64,000 bases of DNA from Sedimentisphaeraceae bacterium JB056 (GTDB taxonomy: Bacteria > Planctomycetota > Phycisphaerae > Sedimentisphaerales > Sedimentisphaeraceae), in contig JBITAJ010000012.1 in NCBI GenBank assembly GCA_044440125.1, forward strand, positions 32,001 through 96,000. The letters run 5' to 3'. The position numbers and the translations under genes are program-made. The notes beneath the pieces were generated by a model, which was not told the DNA's origin, made no database searches, and worked only from the letters and a program-made list of their open reading frames with translations. This document shows positions 39,620 to 57,320 of the stretch, piece after piece. How positions within the stretch are numbered: the first letter of the stretch is position 1; each line of letters opens with the position of its first letter.

Positions 39620-40417
39620 ATGTGTTCAAAGATTAAAGATACTAAAGATTGGATTTGTAAACATGTTGCAATAACTCTATTTATGGTAGTTGCATTTGTT
39701 GTGCTGCTGATTATGGGGTGGCTTTCTTATCCAAAAGATACGGAGTTTGATTTTGTTATAGCATGGGCTGCTCTTTTTGGCGGTATTGGTGGGATTGGTT
39801 CTTTGGTAACAAAAAATGAAGCTTTAAAACAAAATGACAATGCAAGGCTGAGCGATTCTCGTCAGGAGAGGCTGGCTTTGATTGCGTCTGATGTTCTCGA
39901 AAAGACTTATCTGGTACACCGAGCGATAACCAATATAACCTCTCCACTTTCATTTAAGGAAGAAGGCATTAAAACTACTGATGAAAAGGGTGAAGAGGTT
40001 AAAATAGAAAAAACTGACTTATCACAAGCAGAGATTTTTGCATATCGATTTCAAAAACATGATAAACTCTTTTCGAATTACTTTTCTTTAGACATCAAGG
40101 CAAAGGTGTATTTTAATAACGAGGTATATCAAAATATTCAAGATATGAAATCTGTTATTATTTTTATACGTTGTCATATAACCACATTATTAAGATATAC
40201 AAAAAAAGCGATTGAACAAAATCTTGCAGAGAATACCAAACAAATGCAACAGATAGAAGATGAAATTGAAGCTTTCTATAGTCCTGGTTTTGTGAATGAA
40301 TTGTTCGAAGAAAAGACTTCTTCTTCTTTTCAAAAAAATATAGAGACATTTAATACTGTATGTAAAAAACTGGAATTAGAGCTTAGTGGATATATAAGAG
40401 GAAAAGAAATTGACTAA
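39620..40417 (+). CDS. Hypothetical protein, two N-terminal TM helices plus helical domain
   Basis: 265-aa ORF with AGGA RBS in the AT-rich insert. Confidence 0.65.
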   Translation: MCSKIKDTKDWICKHVAITLFMVVAFVVLLIMGWLSYPKDTEFDFVIAWAALFGGIGGIGSLVTKNEALKQNDNARLSDSRQERLALIASDVLEKTYLVHRAITNITSPLSFKEEGIKTTDEKGEEVKIEKTDLSQAEIFAYRFQKHDKLFSNYFSLDIKAKVYFNNEVYQNIQDMKSVIIFIRCHITTLLRYTKKAIEQNLAENTKQMQQIEDEIEAFYSPGFVNELFEEKTSSSFQKNIETFNTVCKKLELELSGYIRGKEID

Positions 40418-40453
40418 ACAAAAAACGGACAATTATTTAAAGGAGTTGGTGTT

Positions 40454-40670
40454 ATGATAAAGAATGATGCAGAAAAACAGATAATTTTGGAATGGGTAAA
40501 TTGGAAAAACTAATAATATAACAAGCCCGTCTTACAATAACAAAGATGAGTTTTATCGTCACCGTCTTCAAAAAGTAACGCCTCAGTTGCTTACATTTCG
40601 AGTTGGTCGTGGATGTGATAAATGGCAAGATGTTCAGGCATGGATAAATGATTATGAAAACAAAAATTAA
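40454..40670 (+). pseudogene. Frameshifted small hypothetical gene (~71 aa if repaired)
   Basis: AAGGAG RBS; MIKNDAEKQIILEWVNWK, then an A5 run; the +1 frame stays open for 53 codons (…LQKVTPQLLTFRVGRGCDKWQDVQAWINDYENKN*). Confidence 0.55.
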
Positions 40671-40801
40671 TGATAGTTAAAGACAGATGGATTTATCGAT
40701 TAAGGATTTTAACGGCTGAATTAAACATGTTAAATTAATGGAGAGTTGTAGAATATGAATGCATATAAGCAAATGAGACTGTATTTGAAGGGGATATATT
40801 A

Positions 40802-41455
40802 ATGGAAACATGGCAGATGATTTTAGTGTTAGTTGTTATTGCTATTGTTGGACTTGTTTCTGAATATCACCAGATTAGAAAGAAACGTAAGAAGCTCAAG
40901 TTGGTTCAGGAGTTTCTGGGAAATTTTGATGAATGGTGTAGTTCTCAATGGAATGACAAACAACTTTATAATTGGATGATTAGTAAGTCTGAAATAATTC
41001 AAAAACAATTAGGTTATTCAGGCCTTATTGATTTACGTCTTCCTTTTGAGAAAGGCTATCATAAAAATTATCCTATAATACTAAATTCTATTCCTGCAAT
41101 TCAACGAGGGATATCAGATTTATATCTGAATAAAGAAGAAGTTGCAACTTATTGTCAAATGGTGGATGGTTGCCTTAGGCGTTTTATTGGTTCAAGAGAA
41201 GAATATATTAGTTATAGATTAAAGAAATTATATAATCCATTAAGTTTGTTTTGTAATGGTATTGGCGTAATTCTTGCTATTCCTGTCTATATGTTAGAAG
41301 AGTGTAAAATAATCAGTCCGAATAGATCTGAATTAATTACTGAGAGTAATTTTTTTGGTTTTATAAACTTAATAGCTTCATTAGTAACAATAGTAAGTGG
41401 ATCTATGGTTATTGTATTGGGTTGGGATAAATTTGTTCAGATTATAGGTTTTTAG
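40802..41455 (+). CDS. Hypothetical membrane protein
   Basis: 217-aa ORF with N- and C-terminal hydrophobic helices; AT-rich. Confidence 0.7.
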   Translation: METWQMILVLVVIAIVGLVSEYHQIRKKRKKLKLVQEFLGNFDEWCSSQWNDKQLYNWMISKSEIIQKQLGYSGLIDLRLPFEKGYHKNYPIILNSIPAIQRGISDLYLNKEEVATYCQMVDGCLRRFIGSREEYISYRLKKLYNPLSLFCNGIGVILAIPVYMLEECKIISPNRSELITESNFFGFINLIASLVTIVSGSMVIVLGWDKFVQIIGF

Positions 41456-41458
41456 ATC

Positions 41459-42208
41459 ATGAATATTAATACCAAAAACATGGATTTCTATCAAATACTT
41501 GAGTTGCATCCATACATGGATATAAAAGAACAATTTGAGGAAATAAAAGATGTTATTAATCTTTTACATGACAAACGTAAAGAGCTATATGGGAAAATAG
41601 AATCGATAAAAGTGTGCAAAAGTAGTTGTGAAGAAGCTAACTTAAATGGCATACAATATAAATCTGCTTACAAAGATATTGCTTGTAGTATGGCTGCTGT
41701 GGGTTTATTAGCACCATTTTTTGAGAGTTTATTTTCTCGTTCATTTGAATACATGCGTGATCAAGATGCTAATAGTCAGACAAGTAAACACAATAGATGG
41801 ATTTGCGCTAAGGAAAACAGTTGGGACTGTCATTATTATTTTGGAAAAAGCAATCATCCACAAAAGAATATTACAAAAGGCATAATACAGTTAGTAGAAG
41901 CAACTAACTTAAAAGATAGATTCCCTAATAATTTAGAAAGTATATTGTCCGCTCTTTTTGCTTATCGTAACAAAATGTTTGATGGGGGATATGAATGGGA
42001 GTTAAAGGATAGAGAAAAATTTTGGAAGCGTGTTGAAGAAAAATGGAATGTTGATAAACGTAAATGGTTTGAAAATGCAACTCAAGGTGATTGTATATGG
42101 ATGATATACATGTCTGATGAATTTATAAATGAGTGTCTTGAATGTATTAAGAAATGTATAACAGAGTTTTCGAGTATCTTTGATGAATTTAAGGGTAACA
42201 GAATTTAA
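41459..42208 (+). CDS. Hypothetical protein, possibly HEPN-like
   Basis: 249-aa ORF 3 bp after the upstream gene; 'APFFESLF' and 'LFAYRNKMFD'. Confidence 0.65.
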   Translation: MNINTKNMDFYQILELHPYMDIKEQFEEIKDVINLLHDKRKELYGKIESIKVCKSSCEEANLNGIQYKSAYKDIACSMAAVGLLAPFFESLFSRSFEYMRDQDANSQTSKHNRWICAKENSWDCHYYFGKSNHPQKNITKGIIQLVEATNLKDRFPNNLESILSALFAYRNKMFDGGYEWELKDREKFWKRVEEKWNVDKRKWFENATQGDCIWMIYMSDEFINECLECIKKCITEFSSIFDEFKGNRI

Positions 42209-46821: not shown

Positions 46822-48236
46822 CCGGCTACAATCATATTACGCCGCAGATAATCGAAGAGCTGGAAAAGATTGTCGGTTCTGAGTATGTGATTTATGGTGA
46901 TGTTGATAAGCTCGAGCCGTATTCGCATGATGAAGTGCCCGGCGCCGAATACAGGCATATGCCTGAGGTGGTTGTCAGGCCGAGAACTGCTCAGGAAATT
47001 TCAGCGATTATGAAGCTTGCCAATGCTGAGATGATTCCGGTAACGCCTCGCGGCGCAGGTTCGGGGCTTAGCGGTGGTGCGGTTCCGATTTATGGCGGAA
47101 TTGTTCTTTTGTGCGACAGGATGAATGAGATACTCGAGTTTGACGCAGAAAATATGATGATTACAGTAGAGCCGGGTATCATATCAAATGAGATTAACGA
47201 ATACCTCAAGCCGCATGGTTTGTTCTATGCAGGGTATCCAATGAGTCTTGAAACTTGCTATATCGGCGGCAATGTGGCGGAGAATGCCGGCGGCGGTAAG
47301 GCGGTAAAGTATGGCGTGACAAATCGTTATGTGCTTGGTATGGAAGTGGTTATGCCAAACGGCGATATTGTTGAATTTGGCGGCAAGCTGATAAAGGATG
47401 TTACCGGCTATAATATGCAGCAGCTTATGACTGGCTCAGAGGGTACGCTTTGTGTATTTACGAAGATAATCCTCAAGCTCCTGCCTTTGCCGGCTCATCA
47501 GGTGGATCTTTTGTGTTTGTTCAAGGATTCCCAGACTGCGATAGAGTCTGTAAGCAAGGTGATGACCGGCGGAATTATACCAACTTCGGTTGAGTATATC
47601 GATAAGACGGCGTTTGTTGCCTCTTGCGAGTATTTGAATGAGACGCTTCCGTATAAGGATGCCGGTGCGATGCTGCTGATTACTATTGATGGTTTCAGTG
47701 AGCAGCAGGTTATAAGTGAGTATGAGGCGGTGGGCGAGAAGTGTCTTGAGCTTGGTGCGATAGAGGTTTATGTTGCTGATAATCCGACGACTACTGAGCG
47801 TGTGTGGAAGATTCGTCGCAATATTGGCGAGGCGTATAATATCATAAGCCGCAGACAGAGCGGGGAGGATATTGTTGTGCCGCCGTCGCAGATACCTCAG
47901 ATGGTGGCTAAGCTTGAGCAGCTTGCAGAGAAATATGGGCTTATGATTCCATGTTTTGGCCATGCCGGTGATGGTAATCTGCATGCAAGGCTGGTTTCTG
48001 ATCCTGCGTGGAGCGATGAATACTGGAAGGAGCTTTTGCCGAAAGTGCTTGAAGAGCTTTATTCGCTTACCGCGAAGCTTGGCGGTCGAATTTCAGGCGA
48101 GCATGGTATTGGAAGCAAACGCAAAAAGTATATGTCGAAAGTAGTCAGCGAAGAGTATCTAAATACTCTGCGGGCAATCAAAAAGGCCCTCGACCCCAAA
48201 GATATCCTGAATCCCGGCAAGATATTTGATGTGTAA
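46818..48236 (+). CDS. FAD-linked 2-hydroxyacid dehydrogenase (GlcD/LctD-like)
   Basis: 'PRGAGSGLSGG', 'IGGNVAENAGG', 'GSEGTL', 'GHAGDGNLH', 'SGEHGIG', 'LNPGK'. Confidence 0.92.
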   Translation: MTGYNHITPQIIEELEKIVGSEYVIYGDVDKLEPYSHDEVPGAEYRHMPEVVVRPRTAQEISAIMKLANAEMIPVTPRGAGSGLSGGAVPIYGGIVLLCDRMNEILEFDAENMMITVEPGIISNEINEYLKPHGLFYAGYPMSLETCYIGGNVAENAGGGKAVKYGVTNRYVLGMEVVMPNGDIVEFGGKLIKDVTGYNMQQLMTGSEGTLCVFTKIILKLLPLPAHQVDLLCLFKDSQTAIESVSKVMTGGIIPTSVEYIDKTAFVASCEYLNETLPYKDAGAMLLITIDGFSEQQVISEYEAVGEKCLELGAIEVYVADNPTTTERVWKIRRNIGEAYNIISRRQSGEDIVVPPSQIPQMVAKLEQLAEKYGLMIPCFGHAGDGNLHARLVSDPAWSDEYWKELLPKVLEELYSLTAKLGGRISGEHGIGSKRKKYMSKVVSEEYLNTLRAIKKALDPKDILNPGKIFDV

Positions 48237-48333
48237 AGACATCATAAGGGGAGTTGCATTTCGGCATTTAGCTTGACTTTTAGTGTTGTTTATAGTACTG
48301 TTAATAATGTGATTAGTAATATTATTAATAGGT

Positions 48334-48594
48334 GTGAAAATGATATCTATAACGTCAAATGAATTGAAAACGAGGGGAGTCTCTGCTATAAAAGGGCTGC
48401 TTAAGGATAATCCCGAAGCCGCTATAACCGTACGTGGCAAGGCTGAATATGTCGTACTGAAGATGGACGATTTTATTCATTACAGAGAACTGGAGCTTGA
48501 ACAGGCACTTTATGAGACTCGCAAGGAAATCAATGAAGGTAAGTTTGCCAAGTCCAGCGTTGAAGAGCATTTAAAGGATATTGGTGATGTATGA
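48334..48594 (+). CDS. Phd/YefM-type antitoxin
   Basis: 'ITSNELKTRGVS...ITVRGKAEYVVL...ELEQALYE'. Confidence 0.85.
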   Translation: MKMISITSNELKTRGVSAIKGLLKDNPEAAITVRGKAEYVVLKMDDFIHYRELELEQALYETRKEINEGKFAKSSVEEHLKDIGDV

Positions 48595-48859
48595 GATTAT
48601 TTATACTCACCGTTATGTAAAACTTGCCAAGAGATTTTTCAAAAAACATCCTGATCTGCTTGAGCGTTACAGAAAGACTCTTCTGCTTCTTGAGGCAGAC
48701 CCTTACCACAAATCACTCCGAATTCATAAGCTTACCGGTCGGCTTGAAGGGATTTTTTCGGTTTCTATCAATATGAAATATCGGATTACAATCGAATTTA
48801 TCATTGATGAAAAGACCATAATTCCTGTAAGTATTGGCTCTCACTCTGAAATTTATTGA
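48581..48859 (+). CDS. RelE/YafQ-type toxin
   Basis: 'DPYHKSLRIHKLTGRLEGIFSVSINMKYRI...IGSHSEIY'. Confidence 0.88.
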   Translation: MVMYEIIYTHRYVKLAKRFFKKHPDLLERYRKTLLLLEADPYHKSLRIHKLTGRLEGIFSVSINMKYRITIEFIIDEKTIIPVSIGSHSEIY

Positions 48860-48930
48860 TTTTTTAATCTAACATTTTGCAGCTTAAAAAGCCTATTCTG
48901 AGAGTTTTAATTGAAATCAGGGGGTAAGTA

Positions 48931-49052
48931 TATGGCATCAGCAGCGCCGCATATTACAAATGGCGTAGCAAATTTGGTAATATGGAAGCCTCTGATATCA
49001 AACGCATGCGTTAGCTTGAACATGAAAACTTTTGTCTCAAGCATATGCCGAT
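48931..49052 (+). mobile_element. Decayed IS3-family OrfA fragment
   Basis: Translates as YGISSAAYYKWRSKFGNMEASDIKRMR*LEHENFCLKHM, the typical IS3 OrfA HTH/leucine-zipper pattern, with an in-frame stop. Confidence 0.8.
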
Positions 49053-49100
49053 TCCAGCAAGCTGATTGCTAAGCCCAAGGAGCTTGCATCCAGATATGTT

Positions 49101-50585
49101 TCATTTTTTATTATGTCTAATTGACATAATAACTCCAGCAATAATAGATAGTAACATCACTCCCCAGCCACCAATTATTATAGAAGAAGGGGAATATCCT
49201 GAATACCAGCCAGAAAATTCATTAATAAATTTTGAACCAAATACAAAGATTAGAATTATTGGTATAAAATAAACGATAATAACCTTGGCTATTTTAAGTA
49301 AGTAAACTTTTTTTAATGAGATCGTATTGTTTAGAGTAAATTTTGTTAAAGTGAATTGTCCAAAAATTATACATTCTAGTATTACAATAGCTGCGATGCT
49401 GTAATAAGCAATCCAATGATCAATTATGTCTAACCAATAAAGACCACTGCCAGTGGTGAAAATTAAACTGCCGCCAAATCCTAATAAGCATATTATGCCT
49501 GCCAATATACTCTTTGATTTTGTCCTTGCAGATAAATCGTCACAGCCAGCGACAATTGCTTCAACTGCAGCAAAAACGCTGTCAATTCCTAATGAAACCA
49601 AAATGACGAAAAATATGATACCCCATAAAGGTGCAAATGGAAGATTTGATATTGCCATTGGGTAGGATACAAAAGCAAGAAAAATGCCATCCAGTTTAAG
49701 GTCAGAAATATTAACACCTGCAGAATGTGCTAAAAACCCCATTGTCGAAAAGACTGTAATGCCTGCAAGTAAACTAAAAAAGACATCAAAACAACAGATT
49801 GTAATTCCAGATTTAATGAGTGCAGAATCTTGTTTTCTTCTGCTTGCGTAAGCTATAACTTGTCCCATGCCTAAACTCATAGATAACATTACCTGAGATG
49901 CAGCAGCAGCCCAAACAGAAATATTGAACATTTTACCGCTTTGAGGTCTGAGAAAATAAGCTACGCCATTTTTAGAACCAGGCATTGTGAAGTTTTCGAA
50001 TATAAATACTATTAGTAAAATAGCCGGCAGTGGTACTGTAATTAATAAAATTTTTGACAATGTTTTTGTTTTTGATCTTGAAATCAAATAAACTCCGCCC
50101 CATACCAAAGCAAGTGCTAATACTGTAGCAAGATTTATTCCTCCTAACTGAAAAGGACCATCTGACATCTTTACAACTTTATCAAGGAAAAATGAAGCAG
50201 GGTCTTTACCCCATGCTTCTGAAAAACTATAAAAAATATATTCTATGCTCCAAGCCAATACAACAGAATAATAAAATAGTATAACTAATGAATTTATTAA
50301 TGCCCACCATCCAATCCAAGTCCATCGCTTATTAATATTTTGAAAAGCAGTTGCTATCGAATTACCCTTTTTACCCATTATTATTTCCAATAGCATAATT
50401 GGTAAGGCAATCAGAAGCATGCAAATAAGATATGGTATAAGAAATGTTCCTCCACCATTTTCATATGCCATATAAGGAAATCTCCAAAGATTACCTACGC
50501 CAACAGCTGCACCAACGCAAGCTAAAATAAAAAAGATTTCTTTAGGCCAAAACTCTCTAATTTTTTTCTTTTTTAATTCAGACAT
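49101..50585 (-). CDS. Sodium-dependent transporter, NSS/SLC6 (LeuT) family
   Basis: 'GAAVGVGNLWRFPYMAYENGGGTFLIPY', 'LAFVSYP', 'LGIDS', 'LDIIDHW'. Confidence 0.95.
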   Translation of the reverse strand: MSELKKKKIREFWPKEIFFILACVGAAVGVGNLWRFPYMAYENGGGTFLIPYLICMLLIALPIMLLEIIMGKKGNSIATAFQNINKRWTWIGWWALINSLVILFYYSVVLAWSIEYIFYSFSEAWGKDPASFFLDKVVKMSDGPFQLGGINLATVLALALVWGGVYLISRSKTKTLSKILLITVPLPAILLIVFIFENFTMPGSKNGVAYFLRPQSGKMFNISVWAAAASQVMLSMSLGMGQVIAYASRRKQDSALIKSGITICCFDVFFSLLAGITVFSTMGFLAHSAGVNISDLKLDGIFLAFVSYPMAISNLPFAPLWGIIFFVILVSLGIDSVFAAVEAIVAGCDDLSARTKSKSILAGIICLLGFGGSLIFTTGSGLYWLDIIDHWIAYYSIAAIVILECIIFGQFTLTKFTLNNTISLKKVYLLKIAKVIIVYFIPIILIFVFGSKFINEFSGWYSGYSPSSIIIGGWGVMLLSIIAGVIMSIRHNKK

Positions 50586-50587
50586 CC

Positions 50588-50749
50588 TTAAAGCTCATTC
50601 CTAATTTCATAATCAGAGAGTTTTTCATTCTCGCAAATCGAACGTGCAGTGTGGCGATTTATAATTATACTTACTATTTTTTGCACATCATCTTCTGGTA
50701 TGTCTACAAGATCTACTAAAGATTCAACAAGTAATTGTTTATTGTTCAT
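50588..50749 (-). CDS. Small 53-aa protein (not in the ORF track)
   Basis: MNNKQLLVESLVDLVDIPEDDVQKIVSIIINRHTARSICENEKLSDYEIRNEL*; ATGA overlap with the upstream stop; its own stop is 2 bp before the transporter ATG. Confidence 0.7.
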   Translation of the reverse strand: MNNKQLLVESLVDLVDIPEDDVQKIVSIIINRHTARSICENEKLSDYEIRNEL

Positions 50750-51879
50750 CTTTCATTGTCCTTAAACATAAGGTTAGTATTAAATGGTAATCTTGTTGTA
50801 TCTCGACTTAACAAGGTTACTATATTTAATTTTCTATCTTTACTATATTTACATAAATAAGTTGAAATTAAGTCTGTTGTTCTTCGTGATTTTACTTCAA
50901 TTGCAATATCTTTCATTTCAAATGCTTCTGTTTTCTCTCTTGGTTCATACATGAAAATTTGAGCAAAAGAGAAACTATATTTTTTGAGAAACTTGATATT
51001 TTCCTGATGGTCCATTTCTGTTTCAGAAGGAAACCCTGCCATAATATCAGTTGAAATATTTTTTACACCATACGATAATAGAGTATTATAAACGGTATAG
51101 AAATTTTCCAAAGAATATTCTCTTCTCATTTTTCTTAAAATCTTATTACTTGCTGATTGGATTGGAATGTGTATATTTCCAGTAATATTGTTATGGGAAA
51201 GTAAAGCTATATCATCAAATTTGCTTTCAAGGAGCCATTTGATACCGATTGGTCCTAACTTTATTTTCTGTGTTGGGTATTTCTGAAAGACATATTTTAG
51301 TAATTGCCATATATCTGTATCTTTATCTAAACCATATGCTCCAATATCTTGTCCTACAAACTTGATATATGCTAATGATGAAGATTTTTCTATATCTTTA
51401 CAAATATCACCGATATCTCTGCTTAGATGTCTTCCGCGTGCTAATTTTACAGAACAATAAGCACAATTTCCATAGCATCCTTCAGATATTGTTATATTCT
51501 GTATTGGATTTAGAGTGGATACTATTTCCAAAGGGGTTAGATGAAAATATTTCGAAATAAAATTTTGTATTTCACCTTTTTTGATGTAATGCAATTTATT
51601 GTTTTTGTGTTTTTTTCTCAGGAAACAACCCGATGCTATAATCAGATGAAAATTTTTATACTCGTAAATATCGTTAAGTAATTTTTCGAATTCATGTTCT
51701 TTTTGCATACTGAAGGTGCAACCTAATATTATAAATATATCAGCAATTTCAGAATCAACCTCGCTTAAGCCTAAAACATTGAGTTCATCTTTAATGACAT
51801 TGGCATCATATTCTAAGCACCCACATCCGTTGTGTATTATACAGTAGCCAGATATATTGTTTTTTGATTTACAGCTCAT
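50746..51879 (-). CDS. Radical-SAM methylthiotransferase-family protein lacking a TRAM domain
   Basis: UPF0004 cysteines 'NGC', 'LGCT', 'SGC'; CxxxCxxC 'EGCYGNCAYC'; 'GQDIGAYG', 'HIPIQSAS', 'TDIMAGFPSET'. Confidence 0.9.
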   Translation of the reverse strand: MSCKSKNNISGYCIIHNGCGCLEYDANVIKDELNVLGLSEVDSEIADIFIILGCTFSMQKEHEFEKLLNDIYEYKNFHLIIASGCFLRKKHKNNKLHYIKKGEIQNFISKYFHLTPLEIVSTLNPIQNITISEGCYGNCAYCSVKLARGRHLSRDIGDICKDIEKSSSLAYIKFVGQDIGAYGLDKDTDIWQLLKYVFQKYPTQKIKLGPIGIKWLLESKFDDIALLSHNNITGNIHIPIQSASNKILRKMRREYSLENFYTVYNTLLSYGVKNISTDIMAGFPSETEMDHQENIKFLKKYSFSFAQIFMYEPREKTEAFEMKDIAIEVKSRRTTDLISTYLCKYSKDRKLNIVTLLSRDTTRLPFNTNLMFKDNER

Positions 51880-53437
51880 TTTTAAGCTCGCTAATAAATT
51901 GCCCTTTTCCTGCGCATCGCAAAAGATGCAAAGGATGGTATTTATTTTTTGTTTCTTTTGCTAGGCATCCAATATTGCCGATATAGTTTGATAAGTTATG
52001 TATTGCGCTTTTACCTTTCATATCATTTGGTTCTTCATTGTTACTATGATTGGCTAAAACAACCTTTTCCTGAAGTTTTATTGCAAATTTTTTTAAATTT
52101 TCATGATAGCATTCTGCAATATCTTCTACCGCTTTTAATGGAATATGAAATCCATTTTCGAAATGATTTTTGTGTTGTTTTTTCTCGTGTAATTCTTTGT
52201 TAATCGGGTAGTAAGCGATTCTGTTGGTTAAATCCAATCCTCCACCCCAAATGCGTATATTCTGGTTTTGAAACATCACCGCACAATCTATTGTAGGTTT
52301 TATTTTGCCTGGTTCTATTAACATTTTGATCAATGCTTTTTTAAGTGTTGCCAATGCATCGCAATAAGTTAGCTTGTTATTTTGCTTATAATCGATATTT
52401 CTTATTTCAGGTAACCCTATGTGTTTAAGGATGCCGTTAAAGTAATTTCTTTCTGACAATATGATTTCTAGAAAATCATCTAATGCAATCACTGCGATTG
52501 GCATTGACATCGCCAAATGTATCAACGATAATTCTTTTAATCTGTCAATTGTTCTATTGTTTGTTGCTACAATATCATGATAACATTCTGGGATGATCAT
52601 AATTCGAGATGCTATTGTTTCATTTTCATGGTTTCGTATTACTGAGTCATGTAAAGCAAGATGAACTTGCATATATGGGGAAAACCATTCAGATAAAGTC
52701 ATTTGTACATTTATAAATAAAGCTTCCTTGCAATTTTTTAAATCTGTAAGCATGTTATTTACAGTTGTGTAATGAATATCTTCTATTTCCTTTGGAGGTA
52801 TGTTTTCGCCAATAATTTGAGAAATATCATCTTTTAAGGTTTTTAGCTTTCCTTCAATTTCCTCTTTATCTTGAAAGTAATCTTCAAATTTTTTTTCAGG
52901 TTGATTATTTGTAGTCTTTTTTATTATTTCTAAAAATACTTCTTTTATATTGTTTAATGCTTTGGTGTCAATTTGTATATCGTCCGGATTTGCAATTTGA
53001 ACTGATTGAATATTTTTAAGAGGGCTGTTTATTTTTCTTCTATCAACACCAAAGTACATAATCATTGCATTCTTATTTTGGCTAGTCAATCGACCTAGTT
53101 CATAGAATAACCAAGGGGACGAAATGTTTTCATGTGTTACAAATAATAATCCTAGAGAACTATCATTTAGTTCTTTTTCTAAGTTTACAACCCAATTGGA
53201 ACCCATCTCAATGTCAACAAAAGACACAAAAGTATTTTTATTCTTAAAGGTTTCACTAAAGAAAGTATTGAATTTTTCTGTAAGTTGTTTGCTATATTGA
53301 CCTGACCAACTTAAAAAACATTTTCCTTCAGATTGATTAGTAGCTTTGCACATCTCTAACATTACCTCAATAATTCGTTTTAGCATAAATTTATGAGAAT
53401 TACAACGTAAAAAACTGCAAATTTCATTGTAAGCCAT
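51869..53437 (-). CDS. TIR-domain protein with unknown C-terminal domain
   Basis: 'CFLSWSG...DIEMGSNW...ELNDSSLGLLFVTHENISSPWLFYELG' (TIR_2-like, catalytic Glu retained); true start may be 53353. Confidence 0.85.
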   Translation of the reverse strand: MAYNEICSFLRCNSHKFMLKRIIEVMLEMCKATNQSEGKCFLSWSGQYSKQLTEKFNTFFSETFKNKNTFVSFVDIEMGSNWVVNLEKELNDSSLGLLFVTHENISSPWLFYELGRLTSQNKNAMIMYFGVDRRKINSPLKNIQSVQIANPDDIQIDTKALNNIKEVFLEIIKKTTNNQPEKKFEDYFQDKEEIEGKLKTLKDDISQIIGENIPPKEIEDIHYTTVNNMLTDLKNCKEALFINVQMTLSEWFSPYMQVHLALHDSVIRNHENETIASRIMIIPECYHDIVATNNRTIDRLKELSLIHLAMSMPIAVIALDDFLEIILSERNYFNGILKHIGLPEIRNIDYKQNNKLTYCDALATLKKALIKMLIEPGKIKPTIDCAVMFQNQNIRIWGGGLDLTNRIAYYPINKELHEKKQHKNHFENGFHIPLKAVEDIAECYHENLKKFAIKLQEKVVLANHSNNEEPNDMKGKSAIHNLSNYIGNIGCLAKETKNKYHPLHLLRCAGKGQFISELKNEL

Positions 53438-53582
53438 AATTTATATACAAAAATATATTAATAGACTATAGCAAATGTGCAATATTATTTTGGTATTTTT
53501 TAATAAGCTTATTAAAAAAATTAAATTGTATTAAAAGTAAACATAAGGTATAGTTTGGGGCTACTCTATAATTAGCCAAAAT

Positions 53583-53613
53583 GAATTGGCTAGTGTTATC
53601 ACATAGCCAATTC
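53583..53613. terminator. Hairpin at the island's right border, after the exonuclease gene
   Basis: GAATTGGCTA-N11-TAGCCAATTC. Confidence 0.45.
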
Positions 53614-53621
53614 TAAGACTT

Positions 53622-54302
53622 TTAACTGAGGTTTGGCATTCTTGAGAGGGTTTTGCCTGTTGGTTTGAGGTTGAAGTTTTCGCAGGTTGGCAGGGGTGAG
53701 TTTTCAAAGCTGTCGATGAATTTATAGCGTTTAAGTAGGGATAAGTGTTTGTATGTTTTGATGTTACGTTGCCTCATCTGCTCGAAATACACATCCATCA
53801 GCTTTGCTGAAGCCAAAGCATCAGCTCCGGCGGTGTGGGCATTTTCAAGCGTGATATTATGCTTCTGACAAGCGAGATCAAGGCTGCACCTATCGCCTAT
53901 ATCAAGCATCTTTCGCATGTACATAAGGCAAAAATGCGGTACTTCCCAGTCAACACCCGCCATAGCAAGCTCATGTCTGAGGAATTTGATATCGAAATAG
54001 ACATTATATGCCGCTACCATACAGCCCGAAAGTGAGTCTACAAAATCTCCGGCTATCTCTTCGAATACAGGAGCATCTTCAACGTCTGAGTTTCTGATGC
54101 CGTGAATATATGTTGCCCCAACGTTGCGGCAGGGGTTTACGAGCGTATCAAAAGCGATATAGGGTTCTTTGCCCGGTTCAACTTTTACAACAGATACCTC
54201 AACAACGCGATCGTTGCCAGGCATCATGCCTGTTGTCTCAAAGTCGATAACGGCTATCGGCAGTTCTTCTATGTTGTGGTTGTATACGCCTGATTTTGTC
54301 AT
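53622..54302 (-). CDS. DEDDh 3'-5' exonuclease (DnaQ-like)
   Basis: 'VIDFETTG', 'YNVYFDIKFL', 'AHTAGADA'. Confidence 0.92.
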   Translation of the reverse strand: MTKSGVYNHNIEELPIAVIDFETTGMMPGNDRVVEVSVVKVEPGKEPYIAFDTLVNPCRNVGATYIHGIRNSDVEDAPVFEEIAGDFVDSLSGCMVAAYNVYFDIKFLRHELAMAGVDWEVPHFCLMYMRKMLDIGDRCSLDLACQKHNITLENAHTAGADALASAKLMDVYFEQMRQRNIKTYKHLSLLKRYKFIDSFENSPLPTCENFNLKPTGKTLSRMPNLS

Positions 54303-54320
54303 TGGTTCTTTTTCGTGAGA

Positions 54321-55976
54321 TTAAAACTTGGCCGGCGGCATTTGCGTGCGATAATGATTTGTTATCGGAAGTCGCCTGTCGCGACCGAATGCCTTTGGCG
54401 TGATCTTTATACCCGGAGGCGATTGACGTCTCTTATATTCGTTGCAGTCGATGAGCCTTATTACCCTGTTGATTTCCGCGGCATCGTAGCCAAGCTCGTT
54501 TACAATCTCCTGCGCAGAGCAATCCATCTCCACATAATGGGTTACTATCGAGTCGAGCATATCGTAGTCTGGCAGTGAATCGGTGTCTTTCTGATCAGGT
54601 CGAAGCTCCGCGCTCGGTGGCCTTGTTATCGTGCTTACAGGGATAACCTCACGGCCTGCGTGTTCGTTTACGTATTCGCTGAGCTTGAAGACAAGCGTTT
54701 TAGGCACATCTTTTATGATCGCAAATCCGCCGGCGGTATCGCCATACAGAGTTGAGTAGCCGACCGCGGTTTCGCTTTTATTGCCGGTGGTAAGCACCAT
54801 GTAGCCGAACTGATTGCTGAGTGACATAAGCATTGTGCCGCGGATACGTGCCTGAAGGTTTTCGTAGGCGGTTTTCGAGTCGTCCCAGCCGTCAACCAAG
54901 CCCAATACATTGTGAAACTCGCCTAAAGTATCGGCAATTGGTATGGTGTGGAATTCGATTCCCAGATTCTGGGCCAGAAGCCCCGCGTCGCTTATGGTAT
55001 CGGAGCTGTTGAATTTCGACGGCATTGTGACGCCGATTACGTTTTCCTTGCCAAGAGCTTCTACGGCGATTGCCGCTACGAGAGCTGAATCAATACCGCC
55101 GCTGAGACCCATTATTATTTTCTTAAACCCACTTTTTCGCACATAGTCGCGGGTTCCCAGCACCAAAGCTCCATAAACTTCCTCAACAGTTTTTCTTGGC
55201 TGAGCCGCCTTGTCCTGACAAGGCTCTATCATTGCCTTGCCCGAATCATCGAGCGTTATGTTTGCAGAAATCATATCTTCGTCGAATACAGCGGCCTTGC
55301 TCAAAACGACGCCGGCAATGTTCGTAAACATGCTTCTGCCGTCAAAGACCAGCTCATCCTGACCGCCTACCATGTTGCAGTATGCTATAGGGGTATCAAA
55401 TCTGCCGGCGGCTTTTGCGATTATGCGTTTTCTTTCTTCGATTTTCCCTTTGTGGAATGGTGATGCAGAGAGGTTGAGCAGAAGGTGCTTGTCTTCTGTT
55501 GCCTCCACTATCGAGGCGATTTTTTCAGTTTGCCATATATCTTCGCATATCGTTACTGCGATTTTGACACCGTCTGTTACGAACGAAACCGGTTTGTTTC
55601 CCGGCACAAAATAACGCCTCTCATCGAACACGCCGTAGTTGGGCAGCAATTTTTTATGGTACACATCGACGATTTTGCCGTCAGTGATTATAGCTGCCGC
55701 ATTGTAGCATTCGTCACCAAGCGGCTGAGCAAACCCTACTATAAGGGTCTTTTTATTGCATCTGTCGGCAACTGCCTGAAGGCCGAGGGTGTTATGATCG
55801 AGGAAGTGCTTTTTAAGCAGTAAATCTTCCGGCGGATAGCCGCACAATGCGAGTTCTGGAAACACAACGACATCGGCGCCGTCAGCTATCGCTTTATCGT
55901 AATATTCAACGATTTTGCCGATATTATAGCCGAAATCGCCAACTATGGGGTTTATCTGTGCAAGTGATATCTTCAA
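54321..55976 (-). CDS. nadE: Glutamine-dependent NAD+ synthetase
   Basis: Nitrilase domain 'FPEL', 'LPNYGVFDE', 'ICEDIW'; 'GLSGGIDS', 'TGNKSE', 'PSAELRPDQ'. Confidence 0.97.
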   Translation of the reverse strand: MKISLAQINPIVGDFGYNIGKIVEYYDKAIADGADVVVFPELALCGYPPEDLLLKKHFLDHNTLGLQAVADRCNKKTLIVGFAQPLGDECYNAAAIITDGKIVDVYHKKLLPNYGVFDERRYFVPGNKPVSFVTDGVKIAVTICEDIWQTEKIASIVEATEDKHLLLNLSASPFHKGKIEERKRIIAKAAGRFDTPIAYCNMVGGQDELVFDGRSMFTNIAGVVLSKAAVFDEDMISANITLDDSGKAMIEPCQDKAAQPRKTVEEVYGALVLGTRDYVRKSGFKKIIMGLSGGIDSALVAAIAVEALGKENVIGVTMPSKFNSSDTISDAGLLAQNLGIEFHTIPIADTLGEFHNVLGLVDGWDDSKTAYENLQARIRGTMLMSLSNQFGYMVLTTGNKSETAVGYSTLYGDTAGGFAIIKDVPKTLVFKLSEYVNEHAGREVIPVSTITRPPSAELRPDQKDTDSLPDYDMLDSIVTHYVEMDCSAQEIVNELGYDAAEINRVIRLIDCNEYKRRQSPPGIKITPKAFGRDRRLPITNHYRTQMPPAKF

Positions 55977-56013: not shown

Positions 56014-56802
56014 TTATGCTACATCTCTGAGTTTTTGTATGCTCTCTGAGTCTTCCTTTTTACTCCATCGTATGTATTCTGCGCCACAACTATCTAATGC
56101 ATTAATATATTCGTCTTTAATTTCTGTCTCGATATCATTAATGACAGCCAAGCCTATAATATTCTTTTCTGTTTGTTTTTCTCTTACCCTTTTTATATCT
56201 TCCCATGTAAACAAAAATTGAGGCAAATTCATTTTATTAATTGAATTGAATGATTTAATTACTATTTCTGTTTTTTTGTATGCGATTTGAAAATCAAAAG
56301 TAAATTCTAACCCAGTACTTCCCTTTGATATGAAATGTGGAGTGTAGATTATTTCATGATCATCAAGATAAGATTTAACATCTTCCCTAAATACAGATGA
56401 TACAGTATGTTTTGCTAGGCAGTAAAGGTCATTAATTTCTGAAATCGCAGATATTATATTCAATTTTTTTTGCGGAAAATTTTTTTCATTTGCTTCAGCA
56501 ACAAGCTCTTTATCCAAAAGCTTAATGTCATAATTTAATAAAATTTTATCTAAAATCTGTTTTCTTTTTTGCGACCTCATTATTTCCATGCCATAAAGCT
56601 CTAAATTTCGTAATGTATTTCCATCATCAGATAGGAAAATTTTATTCTTGTCTTTTTTTGCATAAATATCTAATGTGTCATTGAATGAACTCGTGAACGG
56701 AGTACTTATTTCAACCCATTCAGAGCTGTTACTTGTAGAAAGGACAGTATTTTCCTTTAAGAATGAATAATAATTATTCATTAATTCTTCTATCCAGTTC
56801 AT
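56014..56802 (-). CDS. DUF1828/DUF1829-like protein
   Basis: 'EISTPF...DTLDIYA...LSDDG.TL..L'; 'GSTGLEFTFDF', 'FTWEDI', 'INDIE'. Confidence 0.75.
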   Translation of the reverse strand: MNWIEELMNNYYSFLKENTVLSTSNSSEWVEISTPFTSSFNDTLDIYAKKDKNKIFLSDDGNTLRNLELYGMEIMRSQKRKQILDKILLNYDIKLLDKELVAEANEKNFPQKKLNIISAISEINDLYCLAKHTVSSVFREDVKSYLDDHEIIYTPHFISKGSTGLEFTFDFQIAYKKTEIVIKSFNSINKMNLPQFLFTWEDIKRVREKQTEKNIIGLAVINDIETEIKDEYINALDSCGAEYIRWSKKEDSESIQKLRDVA

Positions 56803-57320
56803 TGTAACCTCATTTGTAAATGTAAGTCTATATTGGTACGAACATTAATTATATCAAAAAAACTTTTCAATACAGGTATTATACCATGCTGTCTACTAAT
56901 ATCTTTTATTCTGAAATTATCTTTATCTAATGGAATTGCCCAAACAAGTTGTTTATAACCATCAACAACATAGTGGATATGGCCAGGCTTTTTATCCAAA
57001 TATATGCCTGCATATGGTTTAAACTTTTCAGGAACAGATTCAAGAACAACTTCTGGATTTTTATGCCGTTGATGGTAGTCAATACGTAATAAACCGTGTT
57101 TTGTTATATCATCTAAATGGTGTAATGATATTTTAAGTGCCTTTTTTTCACTTTCTTTGATGTCTACAATAAATACTTGCTCTGAGTCATCGCTTGATAC
57201 AAGATCCAGTCGTAATCTTATTGGGCTTTCAAGTTTAATGATTTTGGTATCAATTATTTTACCTTTTTCAATTACATGTTTGTCCAGATTTATTAGATTT
57301 GTAGCTGTCTGTGCATCCAT
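56799..57320 (-). CDS. Hypothetical protein (DUF6978-like partner of DUF1828/1829)
   Basis: 'LLRIDY...HKNP...HIHY...WAIPL'; ATGA overlap with the downstream gene. Confidence 0.65.
   Translation of the reverse strand: MDAQTATNLINLDKHVIEKGKIIDTKIIKLESPIRLRLDLVSSDDSEQVFIVDIKESEKKALKISLHHLDDITKHGLLRIDYHQRHKNPEVVLESVPEKFKPYAGIYLDKKPGHIHYVVDGYKQLVWAIPLDKDNFRIKDISRQHGIIPVLKSFFDIINVRTNIDLHLQMRLQ

Follow-up and report, generated by a model that had tools for sequence, protein, structure and literature searches.

Prokaryotic viperins are radical S-adenosylmethionine (radical-SAM) enzymes that function in defence. A radical-SAM enzyme was also described for the defence system Ophion (bioRxiv 10.1101/2025.09.30.679545), and such an enzyme is reported to mature a peptide effector in the system HXS (PMC13128918). 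For the methylthiotransferases (MTTases), PMC10702137 gives only tRNA A37 and ribosomal protein S12 as known substrates, RimO being the sole member with a protein substrate, and describes the family as always consisting of three domains, including a C-terminal TRAM domain. Here we analysed a stretch of 64,000 nucleotides (hereafter the window, to which all positions refer unless a locus is named) from Sedimentisphaeraceae bacterium JB056 (GenBank assembly GCA_044440125.1, contig JBITAJ010000012.1, positions 32,001 to 96,000). It encodes an MTTase that is devoid of TRAM, the domain that usually binds the substrate, and forms a four-gene cassette together with a modular protein (hereafter X), a 53-residue protein and a transporter of the SNF/NSS (neurotransmitter:sodium symporter) family. 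From sequence comparison, the MTTase probably represents a new branch and a new architecture of its family, and the cassette that contains it is probably a new defence system of modular type. The MTTase and its parts are as follows.

50746..51879, minus strand: TRAM-less MiaB/MtaB-like radical-SAM MTTase, 377 amino acids (aa), ATG start.
51604..51843, minus strand: UPF0004 domain of the MTTase (residues 13-92), located by Pfam and the invariant cysteines.
50986..51495, minus strand: radical-SAM core of the MTTase (residues 129-298) with C135xxxC139xxC142, located by Pfam and invariant columns.
50749..50901, minus strand: family-specific C-terminal tail of the MTTase (residues 327-377), which replaces TRAM, located by predicted secondary structure and conservation of an FNTN motif.

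An initial annotation of this open reading frame (ORF) had described an MTTase with both cluster motifs and no TRAM domain, and both parts of this description were borne out. A Pfam scan for UPF0004, Radical_SAM and TRAM, which had been proposed as a check, assigned residues 13-92 to PF00919 (UPF0004; E 3.2e-07, over the cut-off) and residues 129-298 to PF04055 (Radical_SAM; E 1e-13), but detected no match to PF01938 (TRAM) even at E ≤ 0.1. C19 and C54 are located within UPF0004, and C85 is the third ligand of the auxiliary cluster. The NCBIfam model TIGR00089 was aligned from position 3 to 357 of its 429 positions, leaving the last 70 or so, which are the place of TRAM, unmatched. In the AlphaFold2 model, which was built with an alignment of 26 relatives (pLDDT 90.2, pTM 0.88), only a helix of residues 327-348 and a short helix of residues 353-357 were predicted past the radical-SAM core, with no β-domain. 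Because the stop codon of the MTTase overlaps the start codon of the next gene (ATGA), no TRAM is hidden 3′ of the ORF. The TRAM-less state of this MTTase was hence confirmed as real, and, being shared by the similarly short clusters described below, it is more than a product of chance. The strings ISEGCYGNCAYCSVKLARG, QDIGAYGLD, HIPIQSASNKILRKMRREY and FMYEPREKT were all found in the translation, and the protein indeed ends shortly past the last of them; this string occupies residues 309-317, so that 60 aa remain after it rather than the approximately 55 counted earlier.

The Foldseek search with the MTTase model gave an MtaB model (9a6d_A, E 1.7e-24), MiaB (7mjz, 6e-23) and RimO (4jc0, 6e-18) as the top matches. 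The window enzyme resembles MtaB and e-MtaB in its UPF0004 domain with three cysteines, in its CxxxCxxC core and in this top structural match, but it differs from them in that it has no TRAM, belongs to a separate clade with a long stem, and is encoded by an accessory gene in a mobile cassette. MiaB (7mjv-7mjz) matches it in fold (TM 0.78 by Foldseek; profile E 1e-47) and at both cluster sites, whereas the alignment stops before the TRAM of MiaB, and the two enzymes belong to different clades. The family profile ends at residue 382 of 457 in MiaB (7mjz) and at residue 355 of 438 in RimO (4jc0). RimO is a member of the same superordinate family, and its protein substrate provides the working model for the small protein encoded next to the MTTase. 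RimO, however, possesses a TRAM, acts on a ribosomal protein and is more distant in sequence, whereas the partner proposed here is a dedicated neighbour of approximately 55 aa.

A search of 5.8 billion proteins retrieved 35 clusters of similarly short enzymes (P0002-P0036; 310-385 aa, of which 33 are 344-385 aa) at E 1e-97 to 3e-52. Below this short family, the scores dropped sharply to full-length enzymes of approximately 435 aa (E ~1e-32), many of which are of the archaeal e-MtaB type; identity to the full-length relatives was approximately 29-31% in the best rows. An alignment of 26 family members showed that C19, C54, C85, C135, C139 and C142 are invariant, that the core motifs GQD, QSAS and STD..G..E are invariant or nearly so, and that the family's own C-terminal FNTN motif, including N367 and N369, is conserved. 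When scored with the hidden Markov model (HMM) of the family, archaeal e-MtaB proteins reached 195-233 bits, MtaB-labelled ones 159-182, MiaB-labelled ones 132-190 and RimO 128-150. The initial annotation had noted that the motifs look closest to e-MtaB/CDKAL1, which agrees with the archaeal e-MtaB-type enzymes being the best-scoring full-length relatives.

The place of the short family was examined with a tree of 79 rows (20 short-family, 22 e-MtaB, 15 MtaB, 16 MiaB-like and 6 RimO), in which each row was labelled by its top BLAST match among four reference rows, and other proteins of the protein search and most genome-contig loci were left out. Every group was monophyletic in this tree; the short family was placed on a long stem with an SH-aLRT support of 100, and e-MtaB formed a group with a support of 100 without it. 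The best tree joined the short family weakly to bacterial MtaB (support 46.7), and constraining it to e-MtaB cost 0.5 log-likelihood units, which was not rejected by the approximately unbiased (AU) test (p 0.48). Both MtaB and e-MtaB are therefore compatible with these data as the sister group of the short family. Membership in the e-MtaB/CDKAL1 clade, which the enzyme was said to resemble in the initial annotation, was rejected, since the enzyme lies outside monophyletic e-MtaB and its score with the e-MtaB model TIGR01578 was 162.8 bits against a cut-off of 314.7; the likeness to e-MtaB itself was a fair observation. The other subfamily scores were also far under their cut-offs, with 164.8 bits for MtaB (TIGR01579, cut-off 357), 121.6 for the MiaB model and 114.3 for RimO (TIGR01125), and the general model TIGR00089 gave 189.2 bits, below its cut-off of 251.

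The host genome also codes for MiaB (445 bits, cut-off 355), RimO (497 bits, cut-off 357) and MtaB (384 bits, cut-off 357). The window MTTase is an extra paralogue, which is probably neither the tRNA modifier nor the S12 modifier of the cell. No short-family member was found among 60 genomes of the same family or order, where the best score was 181 bits as compared with 479.5 for the window MTTase. A scan of viral contigs gave no close relative and six weak radical-SAM matches, the best of which showed 32% identity over residues 129-319. A scan of genome contigs with the family alignment gave, among the matches listed, only canonical full-length MTTases at identities up to 37%, which relied on generic patterns and is uninformative on the spread of the family. 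Judging from the sequences, the MTTase is intact, probably active, and probably a member of a previously unnamed fifth branch of the MiaB/RimO/MtaB family. Separately, the canonical MtaB of one relative (genome G016, locus L103, positions 1150-2550) appeared as a 380-aa TRAM-less ORF with a TRAM-like stretch in another frame after an A-rich run. This protein was rejected as a true TRAM-less form and ascribed to a frameshift or an assembly error, the TRAM-like stretch being judged by eye without Pfam.

The MTTase gene is the second of four genes on the minus strand, in the order X, MTTase, small ORF and SNF/NSS transporter. The remaining members of this cassette and the region preceding it are as follows.

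51869..53437, minus strand: gene X, first cassette gene, an ORF of 522 aa with an N-terminal TIR-like module and a conserved C-terminal domain.
50588..50749, minus strand: small protein, 53 aa, with the conserved motif R36-S37-I38-C39-E40; start codon of this ORF and stop codon of the MTTase share the string ATGA.
49101..50585, minus strand: SNF/NSS sodium-coupled transporter, 494 aa, last cassette gene (Pfam SNF, E 3.6e-97).
53438..53621, minus strand: spacer 5′ of X, AT-rich (22.8% guanine-plus-cytosine (GC) content), the probable promoter region of the cassette.

X and the MTTase overlap by 11 nucleotides (nt), the MTTase and the small ORF overlap by 4 nt, and a gap of 2 nt separates the small ORF from the transporter gene. 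The GC content of the cassette is 29-33% as compared with 45-49% in the flanking genes, which identifies the cassette as a low-GC insert. Its conservation was evaluated by a metagenome scan with the back-translated family motif, which returned ten loci (L092-L101). All ten encode a family MTTase (35-45% identity), and a homologue of the C-terminal part of X was found directly upstream of it at nine, the remaining locus (L099) ending inside the MTTase. In two of these nine, L095 and L097, X is a partial copy at the contig end, recognized at E 2e-17 and 3e-7, respectively, by a profile built without them. An ORF of 52-64 aa with the small-protein motif was present 3′ of the MTTase at 9/10 loci, that is, at all nine with downstream sequence, as L092 is cut. 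An SNF homologue (45-59% identity) followed the small ORF at eight loci; L092 is again cut, and L097 stops a few codons into an apparent SNF start. Every cassette gene missing among the ten loci is thus explained by a contig end. The GC content across these loci ranged from 28 to 61%, which indicates diverse hosts. In addition, for 14 of the 35 MTTase clusters the longest contig was of identical size to that of a cluster of the SNF subclade described below, giving an independent hint of linkage between MTTase and SNF.

Signals for expression of the cassette were also looked for. A scan for sigma-70 promoters and terminators performed no better than on shuffled sequences, and a search of positions 48000-54500 against Rfam gave no riboswitch or RNA family, its three matches all being far under the gathering scores. 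Just upstream of the X start, TATTTTTG (53438-53470, minus strand) resembles the TAnnTTTG -7 element, a consensus of Bacteroidota type.

The small protein is the candidate partner of the MTTase. An R-[SP]-I-C-E motif is located after two predicted helices in these proteins, and in an alignment of ten of them I38 was invariant, E40 was present in nine, and C39 in eight, being replaced by T or K otherwise. For the prediction of the complex, alignments of both proteins were supplied together with SAM and two 4Fe-4S clusters. The predicted MTTase:small-protein pair gave an ipSAE of 0.86 (0.82, 0.87 and 0.86 in the runs), as compared with 0.15 for the best control; the partner had a pLDDT of 80 or more, and the runs had 69% or more of their contacts in common. 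Of 157 solved complexes, 116 attain this mark, as do 2 of 215 mismatched pairs; these counts apply only roughly here because our own alignments and ligands were used. In the predicted complex, the surest contacts were made by the helices of the small protein on MTTase residues 331-370 of the TRAM-replacing tail, and the interface residues of lowest predicted error included residues 328-374 of this tail. The predicted interface also comprised small-protein residues 35-45 facing MTTase residues 15-26, 54-63, 207-210, 234-237, 276 and 304-307, stretches that surround the cluster ligands and core motifs. The prediction supports binding of the small protein to the MTTase. The initial annotation had suggested that the enzyme was repurposed for a small molecule or a peptide, and it is the peptide part of this suggestion that the predicted complex with the adjacent 53-aa protein backs. 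A search with the small-protein profile against PDB sequences gave no significant match; the best was bL36 (E 0.09) with an ‘ICE(N/E)P’-like motif. The string R-[SP]-I-C-E-[EN]-P of the small proteins recalls the ‘ICE’ strings of bL36, which is probably due to chance, odd as it is that RimO modifies a ribosomal protein.

The main point beyond the initial annotation is that the MTTase belongs to a conserved cassette with an SNF transporter and with X, a partner that swaps TIR, SIR2 and transmembrane modules, and this points to a role in conflict or defence rather than in ordinary biosynthesis. The two parts of X in the window are as follows.

52985..53317, minus strand: TIR-like module of X (residues 41-151), with SSPWLFYELG containing E113.
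51872..52780, minus strand: conserved C-terminal domain of X (residues 220-522), delimited by alignment, with a fold model that is tentatively phospholipase D (PLD)-like.

The PADLOC model TIR-TM PDLC03016 matched X over residues 39-271 (E 2.4e-23), and Pfam TIR_2 matched below its cut-off (E 2.5e-4). E113 presumably corresponds to the catalytic glutamate position of NADase TIR domains. The N-terminal module differs among the ten loci: TIR was detected in L101 (1e-30), L092 and L100, SIR2 in L098 (7e-18), and transmembrane helices in L093 and L096, while L094 is helical without a family match. The SIR2-type X of L098 also matches the LmuA and ThsA models of PADLOC, and the TIR forms match ThsB, SpbK and PDC-S66. 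When 1.84 billion proteins were searched with a profile of the C-terminal domain, only 82 representatives were retrieved, of which 75 had E ≤ 1e-10, and the domain is C-terminal in the full-length hits. Among 68 X homologues scanned with Pfam, TIR_2 was found in 14, SIR2_2 in 11, and CHAT, Trypsin_2 and a Pyr_redox-like domain in one each, with a weak membrane-protein match in one and no match in 39. Transmembrane helices were predicted in 12 of 40 homologues without a clear Pfam N-terminal domain. The X homologues hence carry interchangeable, putatively toxic modules on a constant domain, which is a mark of defence proteins. On this comparison, we interpret X as an exchangeable effector joined to a constant domain that serves as sensor or adaptor. 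By eye, many X homologues of approximately 400-420 aa (P0146, P0152, P0163-P0168, P0173, P0181, P0187, P0188 and P0197) share a helical N-terminus of approximately 110 aa with an ‘LLR.R ... YL...Y’ pattern and no Pfam match; this region could represent another class of module, or it could bind DNA.

The constant domain of X (approximately 300 aa) has the invariant residues F241, W251, P254, Q257, H259, L260, R278, H307, I325, D384 and W397, of which H259 is located within Q-x-H-L-A-L-Q-D in a predicted helix. It gave no match to Pfam (E ≤ 1e-4), PADLOC or NCBIfam, and the ESM Atlas contained no usable hit for it or for the small protein. A sequence homologue search with residues 175-522 of X returned only the query, and the relatives emerged by profile search. 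The model of this domain (pLDDT 72.6, pTM 0.76) was compared with known structures by VIA-align, which gave SauUSI (Z 8.2), NucT (7.2), Nuc (7.2) and Zucchini (7.0), together with FAM83B, PPK and TrmB. We take most of the top 24 rows to be PLD-superfamily folds.

SNF/NSS proteins are sodium-coupled importers. The transporter of the window falls within a subclade of approximately 57 clusters (44-59% identity), which stands apart from generic NSS proteins (at most 41%). Among solved structures, eukaryotic SLC6 transporters are the closest to it, namely GlyT2 (E 6e-64), DAT and GAT1 (~1e-64), and no LeuT-named entry was found among the listed PDB matches (60 rows). The eighth transmembrane helix carries a eukaryote-like ‘GIDS’, and a stretch of the GNxWRFPY type in the first one appeared intact by eye.

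The genomic neighbourhood could be judged at four loci only, which had sufficient flanking sequence (the window, L101, L095 and L096). In L101, genes for a BsuBI/PstI restriction enzyme and an Eco57I-type methylase adjoin X; L095 contains Fic/Doc and Abi_2 genes, and L096 encodes a large D12-methyltransferase protein. In the window, an overlapping toxin–antitoxin pair consisting of a Phd/YefM-like protein (86 aa) and a YafQ/RelE-like protein (92 aa) is encoded just downstream of the cassette (48334-48859, plus strand), its Pfam scores being below the cut-offs. Restriction–modification, Abi and toxin–antitoxin neighbours, a patchy distribution (0/60 relatives) and a low-GC insert together give these neighbourhoods the look of defence islands. 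On the other side of the cassette, a DEDDh/RNase_T exonuclease of 226 aa (53622-54302, minus strand; GC 45%) matched the first ~174 of 411 positions of PADLOC PDC-S48 (E 3.5e-52). This exonuclease and NadE were rejected as cassette members on the basis of their host-like GC content (45-49%), the exonuclease having no counterpart in the ten loci (NadE was not queried). PADLOC also detected a PDC-M24B (E 1.3e-94; DUF1828 and DUF1829) and PDC-M24A (E 3.6e-54; DUF6978) pair at 56014-57320 on the minus strand, which lies between NadE and LemA as a low-GC insert (29-31%) of its own. Another sharp GC dip was seen at 40001-42000 (30% as compared with ~42% in its neighbours), and no tRNA gene is located within the 64-kb window.

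In its constant domain with swapped TIR, SIR2, transmembrane and protease modules and in its defence-island-like context, X resembles the logic of Thoeris, CBASS, Pycsar and Lamassu-type systems, whereas the upstream enzyme of the present cassette is an MTTase instead of a cyclase or a TIR signal maker, and an SNF transporter is included. The cassette would share with viperin, Ophion and HXS a radical-SAM enzyme as an essential part of an immune operon; the viperin, Ophion OpnA and HxsB-type enzymes, however, belong to other radical-SAM subfamilies than the MTTase with its auxiliary cluster, and have other partner genes. No description of the cassette was found in the literature, of which subscription journals and closed bioRxiv supplements were not covered.

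We lean, with moderate confidence, towards the reading that this is an undescribed, horizontally mobile conflict cassette, in which the MTTase acts on or together with its own small protein, either as a RimO-like substrate or as a pseudo-substrate, and the modules of X execute the response. The small protein would dock by its two helices on the C-terminal helices of the MTTase, and its R-S-I-C-E loop (residues 36-40), as we infer from the contact list, would extend into the cleft that separates the auxiliary cluster from the radical-SAM cluster. The small protein may serve the enzyme as a dedicated substrate, in the way that RimO uses S12, or it may control the active site, whether as a pseudo-substrate or as a regulator. 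The PLD-like C-terminal domain of X could sense in which state the complex is, and its N-terminal partner module (TIR in the window, and elsewhere SIR2, transmembrane helices, CHAT or a trypsin-like protease) would then trigger an abortive-infection-type response, such as NAD+ depletion. The SNF transporter could serve for substrate supply (e.g., methionine), as a sensor or as a membrane effector. A more specific form of this proposal, which we regard as possible but rather doubtful, is a new type of immune system based on a third class of MTTase substrates, in which the MTTase would methylthiolate the ~55-aa protein at R-S-I-C-E, or modify it there by other chemistry of its clusters, a new PLD-like sensor would read the modification state and unleash TIR, SIR2, protease or membrane effectors, and the SLC6-like transporter would be integral.

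Several observations weigh against the conflict-cassette reading. PADLOC 2.0 holds no model for the MTTase, the small protein or the SNF transporter, and only the TIR and SIR2 modules of X match, so that the defence role is argued from context and domain swapping alone. The co-occurrence of X and MTTase was checked in the ten loci, not in all 82 X homologues, and an SNF importer is without an obvious place in a defence mechanism. The replacement of C39 by T or K in two of the ten small proteins argues against an essential cysteine. Placement of the R-S-I-C-E loop in the active-site cleft was deduced from the contact list rather than from coordinates, and the PDB holds an integrative model of MtaB with another small protein, YvfG (9a6d), so that part of the high complex score could stem from likeness to it, although the small protein of the cassette resembles no PDB chain in sequence. 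Regarding the constant domain of X, Foldseek gave no match in the PDB at E ≤ 0.001, and the VIA-align values (Z 5.6-8.2) are middling by the scale of the tool, though the list is coherent. The catalytic HKD motif of the PLD superfamily, HxK(x)4D, is not conserved in this domain, whose invariant residues include no lysine.

These points leave room for readings other than immunity. The cassette might tailor a peptide or a small molecule, with the small ORF as a precursor resembling those of ribosomally synthesized and post-translationally modified peptides (RiPPs), or with a metabolite imported by SNF, being methylthiolated; this is in essence what the initial annotation had inferred. A radical-SAM enzyme, a short ORF and a transporter are the usual content of RiPP clusters, and the conserved motif of the small protein is predicted to touch regions around the catalytic motifs. 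Peptide maturation by a radical-SAM enzyme is reported even inside a defence system, HXS (PMC13128918). Nevertheless, the Pfam scan of the cassette proteins gave no RRE/PqqD, SPASM, leader peptidase or ABC/MFS exporter, the transporter being an SNF symporter, and the small ORF follows the MTTase in 1:1 translational coupling. The swapping of TIR, SIR2, transmembrane and protease modules on X is what conflict systems, rather than biosynthetic ones, typically show, and the restriction–modification, Abi and toxin–antitoxin neighbours also speak against tailoring, which we consider unlikely. It seems to us quite improbable that the enzyme is still a tRNA (A37) MTTase for which the small protein substitutes TRAM in trans, perhaps for particular host or phage tRNAs. 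Its best-scoring full-length relatives are the tRNA enzymes e-MtaB and MtaB, its catalytic motifs are all kept, and tRNA is recognized by the MTTase and radical-SAM domains as well as by TRAM (PMC10702137). The host genome, however, already possesses MiaB and MtaB, and the family is rare, patchy and embedded with X and SNF. The conserved loop is predicted to touch the cleft where the nucleotide must enter, and the charge of the small proteins is inconsistent by hand count, that of the window being net acidic and those of L096 and L101 basic.

Two further explanations concern the enzyme rather than its partner. The MTTase may act on a small nucleotide, such as an adenine-containing product of TIR or SIR2, and thereby make or destroy a signal, the small protein serving only as a regulator. 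TIR and SIR2 modules process NAD+, as is known of these families, and the separate conserved domain of X could bind such a ligand. MtaB/MiaB-type enzymes attack C2 of adenine (PMC10702137). On the other hand, many X homologues have no NAD-processing module but transmembrane, protease or unassigned N-termini, and the MTTase is kept nonetheless, e.g., with the transmembrane-type X of L093 and L096, which makes this nucleotide chemistry highly improbable in our view. Hardly any weight can be given to a decaying, truncated copy of a housekeeping MTTase, for which the score under the NCBIfam family cut-off and the truncated-looking, frameshifted MtaB frame of a relative could be cited. Against decay, the short length, the invariant catalytic residues and the conserved family C-terminus recur in approximately 35 clusters, the clade is supported at 100, and the operon has been kept in hosts whose GC content spans 28-61%; no TRAM remnant is present downstream. 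A truncated pseudogene was hence rejected on the evidence of clade, conservation and operon.

With a conserved branch that lacks TRAM and is paired with a small protein of its own, the MTTases would gain a new architecture and probably also a new substrate. The cassette also defines the X domain, which is without a Pfam match, and the small size of all four cassette proteins allows the model to be tested directly. It would bring radical-SAM sulfur chemistry and a neurotransmitter-type sodium symporter into bacterial conflict systems.

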